From sequence record PV611058: a stretch of DNA of 64,000 bases, one strand, 5' to 3'. This stretch comes from Escherichia phage WPEC3. A program made the translations under genes and the position numbers. Shown here piece after piece: positions 31,295-31,849 of the stretch. The notes beneath the pieces were generated by a model. The model saw only the letters and a list, made by a program, of their open reading frames with translations. It was not told the DNA's origin and ran no database searches. Position 1 is the stretch's first letter, and each line of letters opens with the position of its first letter.

Positions 31295-31484
31295 ATACTA
31301 AATTGGAAAAGTGTTCAGTACTGGAATATTTTGCTAAATCTGTTATATGGAAGTAGACATCTTTGAAATTATCATTCTCAAATGTCGTTATTTGTAAACA
31401 GTGTGTGGGTCTGAAAATATAATAATAAAATATATCATCTTCAGCCACAACTGTATGGTTTTTGTAGCGTTCAATTTTTTTCAT
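31263..31484 (-). CDS. hypothetical protein
   Basis: track ORF 31263-31532 trimmed to the internal Met that gives an ATGA overlap with the upstream deaminase stop. Confidence 0.4.
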   Translation of the reverse strand: MKKIERYKNHTVVAEDDIFYYYIFRPTHCLQITTFENDNFKDVYFHITDLAKYSSTEHFSNLVFVYCIPNHNM

Positions 31485-31849
31485 GTGTGAATAATTTCTT
31501 TTACCCCATATTCCATAATTGCCAACGTACAAATCTCACAAGGCTTGGCAGGGACTGGAATACCATCTTTACTTACCCGTGCAATCAACAAAGTATGAAC
31601 TTCAGCACGAGAAGCCAGCAAACATGAGATTTCAGCATGAAGAAATTCACCTTGTGGACGACCAGCACGGATTGCAAAACCTTTCTGTACTGGGTGAGTA
31701 TGTGTGTAAGAATTAGTACGTGTTGCCAATACACGACCTTTCTTATCTAGTGCACGAGCAATCACACGATAACGTTTGTAGCTCCCCACTTGCTCGATTG
31801 GTGGCATCCGTCGCAATTCTTCAATTAGTTTCTCAAGTTTACGATTCAT
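31481..31849 (-). CDS. cytidine/deoxycytidylate deaminase-fold protein (CDA superfamily)
   Basis: 122 aa; zinc-binding HAE ... PCEIC signature. Confidence 0.6.
   Translation of the reverse strand: MNRKLEKLIEELRRMPPIEQVGSYKRYRVIARALDKKGRVLATRTNSYTHTHPVQKGFAIRAGRPQGEFLHAEISCLLASRAEVHTLLIARVSKDGIPVPAKPCEICTLAIMEYGVKEIIHT

Follow-up and report, generated by a model that had tools for sequence, protein, structure and literature searches.

The question raised by this stretch of 64,000 nucleotides from Escherichia phage WPEC3 (record PV611058; hereafter the window, at its full length) is why a phage with a canonical dCMP deaminase should encode a second, much smaller zinc deaminase. The initial annotation had placed a 122-residue protein with an HAE ... 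PCxxC signature at 31481-31849, and had left its substrate between free nucleosides or nucleotides, tRNA and nucleic acid. Counterparts of the gene stand in public records as Ecwhy1_289 ('dCMP deaminase'), fEgEco12 g233 ('CMP/dCMP-type deaminase domain-containing protein') and 121Q gene 490, and many other records label it hypothetical. The existence of the small deaminase gene is therefore not new. What is new is that the protein fits no characterised clade of the cytidine deaminase (CDA) superfamily and represents a widespread minimal viral family, whose members are filed in databases as 'dCMP deaminase', 'TadA' or 'hypothetical'. Tentatively, it may be an unregulated deaminase of free cytosine (deoxy)nucleotides which supplements the supply of dUMP/dTTP precursors.

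The open reading frame (ORF) was found at exactly the coordinates 31481..31849, on the minus strand, with an ATG start and a TGA stop; its product has a mass of 13.8 kDa and an isoelectric point (pI) of 9.84. The signature was recovered both by translation and by a motif scan: HAE occupies residues 71-73 and PCEIC residues 103-107. The codons of H71-A72-E73 (31631..31639, minus strand) encode one zinc ligand together with the glutamate that shuttles the proton; His and Glu are invariant in 32 diverse relatives. Those of P103-C104-E105-I106-C107 (31529..31543, minus strand) supply two cysteine zinc ligands, the proline and both cysteines being likewise invariant. The protein contains only three cysteines, C75, C104 and C107. 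Two further residues are invariant in the family: N46 (codon 31712..31714, minus strand) at the end of strand 2, a putative sugar- or base-contacting Asn on the model of other CDA-fold enzymes, and the family-specific R91 (31577..31579, minus strand) at the end of strand 3, a candidate phosphate contact.

The Pfam profile PF00383 was passed marginally (26.2 bits against a cut-off of 25), and PHROG_174 'dCMP deaminase' matched with an expectation value (E) of 1e-11. The orthologue in phage slurp01 shares 84% nucleotide and 93% amino-acid identity, and the comparison of both genes gave a ratio of non-synonymous to synonymous substitutions (dN/dS) of 0.043 at a dS of 0.98. The small deaminase gene is under strong purifying selection. 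Judged from its sequence and from structure models, the 122-residue protein is thus a real, selected and probably active zinc deaminase. The dCMP deaminase reported at 42705-43181 was confirmed as a 158-residue protein (Cd; minus strand, pI 6.7, HAEMNA...TLQPCYTC) with strong scores for PF00383 (78.5 bits) and PHROG_174 (6e-62). It lies outside the small-deaminase unit: the genes are about 11 kb apart and the two proteins aligned in BLASTP only at E = 13, so that the small enzyme, besides being much shorter, is unrelated to it in sequence.

A profile classification within the CDA superfamily was run, and dCMP deaminases came out closest while the features of their own clade were missing. Searched against all PDB sequences, the family profiles ranked the S-TIM5 dCMP deaminase 4p9c first (1.4e-9 and 4.3e-10), followed by the dCMP deaminases of T4 (1vq2), S. 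mutans (2hvv) and human (2w4l). TadA (about 2e-4 to 4e-4) and tetrameric CDA (0.012-0.014) stood lower down. Profiles were needed for these matches, as a single-sequence search of solved structures with the 122-residue protein returned noise only.

The clade-defining features were taken from Iyer et al. (PMC3239186) and Slyvka et al. (PMC12088426). The general [H/C]xE and PCxxC motifs of the superfamily are present in the 122-residue protein. The Cys/His zinc insert of dCMP deaminases and ComE and the second zinc site of the classical enzymes are absent, as are NxxP, HxE-x-NA and TxxxT, in the place of which the protein has N46-SYTHTH-P53, HAEISC and LLIARVS. The allosteric motif G(Y/W)N(A/G) (PMC12088426) is lacking too, R-T-N-S being found instead; GYN[RQK] is kept in some longer relatives. 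Helix 4 and the parallel strand 5 of dCMP deaminases are missing.

The hallmarks of CDD/CDA enzymes fared no better. PCxxCR is replaced by PCEICT without an Arg after the second Cys, HAE is a minority form among CDD, CDA and blasticidin-S deaminase (BSD) proteins (C[H]AE), and the strand 4-5 hairpin with its terminal Glu is absent from the 122-residue protein, while G[FY]xxE occurs in about half of the family. The NCBIfam profile TIGR01354 cyt_deam_tetra scored 12.8 bits against a cut-off of 113.65. For TadA, neither EPCxMC nor helix 4, strand 5 or the two C-terminal helices were found, the protein showing AKPCEIC and nothing past strand 4. The MafB19-like deaminase profile PF14437 reached 13.3 bits against a cut-off of 27, and the Bd3614 family PF14439 gave no match to the protein. 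With the hallmarks of both dCMP and CDA/CDD deaminases missing, the family forms a distinct clade of the CDA superfamily, dCMP-deaminase-like in sequence and, according to the models, hairpin-type or strand-5-less in architecture.

Each of the known groups resembles the family in part. The dCMP deaminases (S-TIM5 4P9C, T4 Cd 1VQ2, human DCTD 2W4L) share HAE, PCxxC and the Asn at the end of strand 2, are its best profile matches and occur in the same replication and nucleotide-metabolism context, but have about 140-190 residues against 122. Tetrameric CDA and BSD enzymes (2FR5, 1R5T, BSD 1WN5) are alike in small size, in the loop from strand 3 to PCxxC and in lacking helix 4; in the longer family members the strand 4-5 hairpin is shared too, and these structures are their best matches. 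In contrast to the family, they have a Cys as first ligand, PCxxCR and the NxE sugar-binding motif, whereas the family has a His, neither motif and an extra insert helix, strand 5 is absent from the 122-residue protein, and profile scores are weak. TadA/Tad2 proteins have HAE, PCxxC and the strand-2 Asn in common with the family, and some pipelines call its relatives 'TadA'. However, none of their (T/S)xEPCxMC motif, helix 4, strand 5 and C-terminal tRNA-binding helices is seen in the 122-residue protein. Bd3614-like deaminases of Bdellovibrio and chlorophytes differ by their own N-terminal domain, HAExN and a Met-containing CxxC (PMC3239186). Finally, mSCD-B5, the PBCV-1 bi-DCD (7FH4) and the XP-12 5m-dCTP deaminase are, like the family, virus-encoded single-domain zinc deaminases of nucleotide-metabolism modules; unlike it, they have the full canonical fold, 140-154 residues and a link to thymidylate-synthase homologues. 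The match of 7FH4 to the family was weak (Foldseek E 3e-3, profile E 1e-3). These three enzymes illustrate that 'dCMP deaminase' annotations hide dCTP, 5-methylcytosine (5mC) and single-stranded DNA (ssDNA) activities; the 5mC-selective deaminases described in a preprint are canonical 154-residue enzymes.

An AlphaFold2 model of the 122-residue protein, built on 14 relatives, displayed the deaminase-core topology with a predicted local distance difference test (pLDDT) value of 90.6. In the N-terminal half it contains a helix (3-14), two strands (28-34 and 40-45) and an insert helix (53-61); in the C-terminal half follow the catalytic helix (72-80), a strand (86-92), the zinc helix (105-114) and a last strand (118-121). 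The core order strand1-strand2-helix2-strand3-helix3-strand4 is thus present in the model, the insert between strand 2 and the catalytic helix being a single Cys-free helix. The modelled chain terminates at T122, straight after strand 4, so that helix 4 and strand 5 are absent. Foldseek retrieved CDA-fold proteins only (E about 4e-4, template-modelling score (TM) 0.5-0.57), with human dCMP deaminase, blasticidin-S deaminase and mycobacterial CDA matched about equally and weakly.

The family is bimodal in this respect. About half of the members have 15-17 residues after PCxxC and end after strand 4 like the 122-residue protein, and in the others this stretch is 25-28 residues long and contains the conserved tail T[TD]xG[FY]xxE. 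The model of a tail-bearing relative, P0060 (pLDDT 94.0), showed this tail as an antiparallel strand 5 set five turn residues from strand 4, with no helix in between. Its top PDB structure matches were mouse CDA 2fr5 and yeast CDD1 1r5t (E 2e-6, TM 0.65), followed by dCMP deaminases and blasticidin-S deaminases. P0060 therefore appears, in its model, to have the C-terminal-hairpin architecture of cytidine deaminases and not the helix-4 type of dCMP deaminases and TadA. The Bd3614 clade offers a precedent, since it too is without the terminal strand 5 (PMC3239186). A supply of strand 5 to the 122-residue protein by an overlapping 73-residue ORF or by a frameshift was considered and ruled out, because about half of the family, in unrelated phages, stops at the same ...[YH]T position, because RaK2 does not have the 73-residue ORF, and because the sequence of that ORF is unlike the G[FY]xxE tail.

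The extent of the family was determined with a profile search over 1.84 billion representatives, counted as clusters at 50% identity. It matched 4,597 clusters, 1,137 of them below E 1e-10, with values for relatives of the 122-residue protein as low as 1e-48. The top 150 clusters were all small (99-166 residues), and family members measure 100-150 residues. On alignment, the zinc ligands proved to be kept across the whole family: H[AS]E...PCxxC is retained by 268 of 271 retrieved relatives, and no sign of a non-catalytic domain was seen. N46, H71, E73, R91, P103, C104 and C107 were invariant in alignments of 14 and 32 diverse members, and the catalytic motifs also in an alignment of 25 relatives. 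Around the consensus HAEIxAL and PCxICxxA, the family signature consists of an N...(K)THPxQ insert helix, LHAE[IV], an invariant Arg ending strand 3, AKPCxIC and the terminus G[IV]xx[IV]x[YH]T, to which a short hairpin may be added. All signature features of the phiKZ ORF260 / RaK2 ORF518 type clade are present in the 122-residue protein. The family is strongly basic, with a median pI of 9.61 (interquartile range 9.33-9.81); the 122-residue protein stands at 9.84 against 6.69 for Cd of the same phage. Such a pI fits a polyanionic ligand, either a nucleoside triphosphate or a nucleic acid.

By tblastn, the family was detected in Rak2-like jumbo phages (RaK2 ORF518, GAP32_134, Munch, EJP2, and Erwinia and Yersinia phages) and, at 34% identity, in phiKZ-like Pseudomonas phages; the GAP32 and RaK2 records already name phiKZ ORF260 as homologue. 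Other carriers are Aeromonas phages, the cyanomyoviruses S-CAM7 and ACG-2014f, Xanthomonas phage DES1 and Cobetia phage Carin-5. In IMG/VR, 311 viral contigs were confirmed as carriers by a pattern scan; a comparable scan of prokaryotes (one genome per species, 185,579 species) matched only five short contigs of metagenome-assembled genomes. The family is essentially viral. No description of it was found in the literature on jumbo-phage, anti-defence and compact deaminases or on PHIKZ260/ORF260, nor was a solved structure or an assay of any member found. It is therefore a large, virus-restricted and apparently unstudied clade of stripped-down CDA-fold enzymes. A four-stranded deaminase of 100-122 residues, if active, would define the minimal functional core of the fold, a matter of interest both in enzyme evolution and with regard to compact editing tools.

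For the genomic context, all ORFs within 10 kb of the gene were clustered at 92 loci, which cover 21 sequence groups of the deaminase (60% identity). DNA polymerase A was encoded near the small deaminase in eight of the 21 groups, a metallophosphoesterase and a DenV-type pyrimidine-dimer glycosylase in four groups each, and a 5'-3' exonuclease, a T4-type RNA ligase 1, a primase-helicase and a canonical dCMP deaminase in three groups each. A class II ribonucleotide reductase (RNR) was present in two groups, lying 195 bp from the deaminase in 27 loci, and ThyX was also found in two. From these recurrent neighbours it follows that the small deaminase belongs to replication and nucleotide-metabolism modules. 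Outside the Rak2-like group, no conserved immediate neighbour or functional partner was found. All carrier loci are AT-rich (29-51% GC). In Xanthomonas phage DES1 (64.7 kb), which encodes ThyX and RNR, the small deaminase is the sole ORF with HxE...PCxxC. It occurs together with a canonical Cd in WPEC3, in RaK2 (gp495 and ORF518), in a 136-kb metagenomic phage and in two further groups, and together with a Dcd-type dCTP deaminase and ThyA in the phiKZ-like phage OMKO1. This co-existence with conventional dC-to-dU enzymes in several phage lineages makes a distinct role likely, for which unregulated precursor supply, another phosphorylation level, a modified substrate and nucleic-acid editing can be considered.

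Some details of these carriers were recorded in addition. In OMKO1 (locus L025) the Dcd-type gene lies at 5508-6077, and thymidylate synthase is present in two pieces (thyA_1 and thyA_2, 17356-18435 and 19583-19825) with an 891-bp ORF between them, as if thyA were interrupted by an intron or homing element. On the uncultured 136-kb contig, the canonical dCMP deaminase (165 residues) and the small-family member (102 residues) are 3.2 kb apart (loci L012/L013: 2307-2804 and 6001-6309, with 11436-12309). The contig also encodes a T4-type RNA ligase 1, a kinase-like AAA_33 protein and a T4 alpha-glucosyltransferase homologue, which suggests a phage with glucosyl-hydroxymethylcytosine DNA in which the small deaminase is still kept.

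Among the functions considered, deamination of free cytosine nucleotides is preferred, although only tentatively. The protein keeps His71, Cys104 and Cys107 as zinc ligands and Glu73 as proton shuttle, and with them cytosine would be converted to the uracil form in a free (deoxy)nucleotide, with a dCMP- and/or dCTP-level substrate. The phosphates would be bound by the basic surface, by the invariant R91 and by the Lys that is frequent before PCxxC in the family. Feedback control by dCTP/dTTP would not apply to the small deaminase, and extra dUMP/dTTP precursor for the AT-rich genome would be formed beside the regulated Cd. The grounds for this reading are the likeness in sequence to dCMP deaminases, the kind of module in which the gene is found, the situation in DES1 and the AT-richness of the carriers. 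Triphosphate-specific zinc deaminases are known to accumulate Lys and Arg around the site (PMC12088426).

Several observations weigh against this proposal. Every clade-specific dCMP deaminase feature that was tested fails in the 122-residue protein, and the C-terminal elements which wall the pocket in dCMP deaminases are absent. The longer relative P0060 is structurally closest to tetrameric cytidine (nucleoside) deaminases. The repeated company of Cd or Dcd points to a non-redundant substrate, and the high pI and open minimal fold suit a polynucleotide equally well. The low GC of the carrier loci is confounded, since phage early regions are generally AT-rich.

The first of three serious rivals, a polynucleotide deaminase with cytosine (or adenine) of ssDNA, mRNA or tRNA as its target in the infected cell, is on the unlikely side; it could serve, for instance, host nucleic-acid damage or tRNA recoding or repair. 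Beside the strongly basic character of the family, it draws on the models, in which the pocket-closing helix 4 and strand 5 of mononucleotide enzymes are missing. The Bd3614 clade, also without strand 5, is a predicted RNA editor (PMC3239186), and phage 'dCMP deaminases' were shown to deaminate ssDNA (bioRxiv 10.1101/2024.12.05.627091). DNA polymerase A, the DenV glycosylase, T4-type RNA ligase 1 and, in four groups, tRNA-Arg(UCU) among the neighbours are in line with such a substrate. Conversely, no conserved inhibitor, immunity or uracil-glycosylase-inhibitor partner adjoins the small deaminase, and an untargeted DNA mutator would strike the phage genome too. The insert helix 53-61, which may act as a cap, sits where a cap restricts dCMP deaminases to soluble substrates (PMC3239186). 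Features of TadA are absent, TadA ranked under the dCMP deaminases in the profile search and it was not among the fold matches of the 122-residue model or of P0060. The view that, among natural cytosine deaminases of polynucleotides (ssDNA or RNA), this family is the smallest class, used on host or phage nucleic acid in the course of infection, is held to be on the unlikely side. If it were true, these basic, phage-encoded enzymes of 100-125 residues, without helix 4 and often without strand 5, would be directly useful as ultra-compact base-editor domains.

The TadA-like option of the initial annotation was not borne out: the features of TadA membership are lacking, and the context speaks for DNA-precursor or DNA metabolism and not for tRNA editing. 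Editing of tRNA(ACG) in particular is unlikely: a tRNA search of the window found none, and near family members tRNA-Arg(UCU) prevails and no tRNA has A34. The tRNA-Arg(UCU) gene lies within 10 kb of the small deaminase in four of the 21 groups, 382 bp away in DES1 (L023, 23734-23809) and, in a group of 25 IMG/VR contigs, at a distance of about 2.6 kb; in loci L041 and L092 it occupies 6799-6875 and 2551-2626. This proximity may reflect the mere commonness of that tRNA in AT-rich phages.

A nucleoside deaminase is unlikely. It would be a stripped-down relative of tetrameric CDAs that converts (deoxy)cytidine to (deoxy)uridine, for salvage via thymidine kinase. The size of 100-130 residues and the loop from strand 3 to PCxxC are those of tetrameric CDAs, and P0060 has the hairpin without helix 4, with 2fr5 and 1r5t as best matches and blasticidin-S deaminases close behind. 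The G[FY]xxE tail of longer relatives recalls the Glu that ends strand 5 in CDD/CDA, and RaK2 encodes a thymidine kinase. However, the motif is HAE and not CAE, PCxxCR is absent and strand 5 is lacking in the 122-residue protein. Tetrameric CDAs ranked far lower by profile (0.012-0.014 against 1e-9), to which the cyt_deam_tetra score is to be added. A neutral substrate leaves the very basic surface unexplained, and lytic phages obtain their precursors mainly as nucleotides.

An altogether different substrate is likewise improbable; candidates are dCMP or dCTP with a 5-methyl or 5-hydroxymethyl group, a base of the purine or pterin-like kind, or a signalling or antibiotic-like molecule that contains cytosine. 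Clades of the CDA fold have been recruited to blasticidin S, guanine and riboflavin intermediates (PMC3239186), and some phage dCMP-deaminase-like lineages prefer nucleotides of 5mC or 5-hydroxymethylcytosine (5hmC). The metagenomic phage with both deaminases encodes the T4-type alpha-glucosyltransferase, and the co-existence with Cd or Dcd suggests a substrate of its own. Against this, no conserved link to 5mC/5hmC thymidylate-synthase homologues or to a modification cassette was seen at the 92 loci, the consulted papers on these phages report methyltransferase genes and no hypermodified bases, and PADLOC returned no defence-related match. Lastly, a non-catalytic deaminase-like domain or a spurious ORF, to which the bare passing of the Pfam threshold and the many hypothetical labels might point, is hardly credible, given catalytic and zinc residues that are invariant across hundreds of clusters, the low dN/dS, confident fold models and probable translational coupling to the neighbours.

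In the region around the gene, the sequence shares 99.7% identity with Escherichia phages Ecwhy_1 and fEgEco12 and about 86% with 121Q, which identifies WPEC3 as an Asteriusvirus (121Q/Ecwhy_1-like) jumbo myovirus. The closest public record, Ecwhy_1, is flagged UNVERIFIED. The immediate neighbours of the deaminase in this phage are all of unknown function. Upstream on the minus strand lies an ORF of about 204-208 residues (31846..32472, PHROG_16370), the TGA of which overlaps the ATG of the deaminase (ATGA); the same arrangement occurs in RaK2 (ORF517/518) and GAP32 (133/134). The 208-residue product has no Pfam match, hits only PHROG families of unknown function and is unrelated to a similarly placed 190-residue ORF of another phage. 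Downstream, the 73-residue ORF of unknown function (31263..31484, minus strand) overlaps the TGA of the deaminase with its ATG, again as ATGA; it is found in Asteriusvirus relatives and not in RaK2. With ATGA overlaps on both sides, the three genes are probably translationally coupled.

Further downstream on the minus strand follow a 61-residue ORF (30077..30262, PHROG_11659), whose RaK2 homologue ORF519 stands directly after the deaminase and before nrdD, then nrdD itself (28009..29841), coding for the 610-residue large subunit of anaerobic ribonucleoside-triphosphate reductase, and an nrdG-like gene for a reductase-activating protein (27226..27696). In every Rak2-like phage examined, nrdD follows the deaminase on its downstream side, and the order conserved in this group is the ORF of about 210 residues, the deaminase with its ATGA overlap, small ORF(s), nrdD and nrdG. 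The nrdD gene, a single ORF here, is annotated as two CDSs in the close relatives WPEC5 and CMSTMSU, which suggests an insertion or frameshift there. Just upstream of the 208-residue ORF (32479..32558, minus strand) stand a terminator-like hairpin at 32501-32479 and, at 32558-32530, a match to a sigma-70-like promoter. By consensus match only, they may mark the start of the deaminase transcription unit. Terminator-like hairpins were about threefold enriched between 29800 and 35200 (8 against 2.5 +/- 1.6 in shuffled sequence), lying mostly between small minus-strand ORFs, e.g. at 32501-32479, 34465-34448 and 30064-29955.

Other features of the window concern its assembly and its differences from relatives. 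Units of 155 bp (38390-38699) and 151 bp (38855-39156) are each duplicated exactly in tandem, and a run of 70 C follows (39157-39226). At 39321 an Illumina TruSeq adapter read-through (AGATCGGAAGAGCACACGTCTGAACTCCAGTCAC...) occurs, then long poly-G and poly-C runs, and a second copy of the adapter is present at 39784. The segment 38313-39800 looks like an assembly artefact, and ORFs called in it are probably spurious, among them 39283..39591, 39319..39798 and 39351..40376 in its 5' part. The genome of fEgEco12 has an intact gene for a Sir2-like protein of 250 residues beside a NUDIX hydrolase gene. In WPEC3, positions 38172-39022 hold only the C-terminal part of this protein (residues 179-250 at 98.6% identity); residues of about 137-204 recur in the duplicated copies, the gene being broken into short ORFs by the 155-bp unit, and the N-terminal 136 residues or so were not found in the window. 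A 972-bp gene with a WGR domain lies between the homologues of 121Q-484 and 121Q-486 in Ecwhy_1 and fEgEco12 (L001, 3605-4576; L003, 29559-30530). It is missing at about 33260-33450 of the window and also from 121Q, Turkey3 and others, and this difference amounts to an indel of about 925 bp among phages that are otherwise 99.7% identical.

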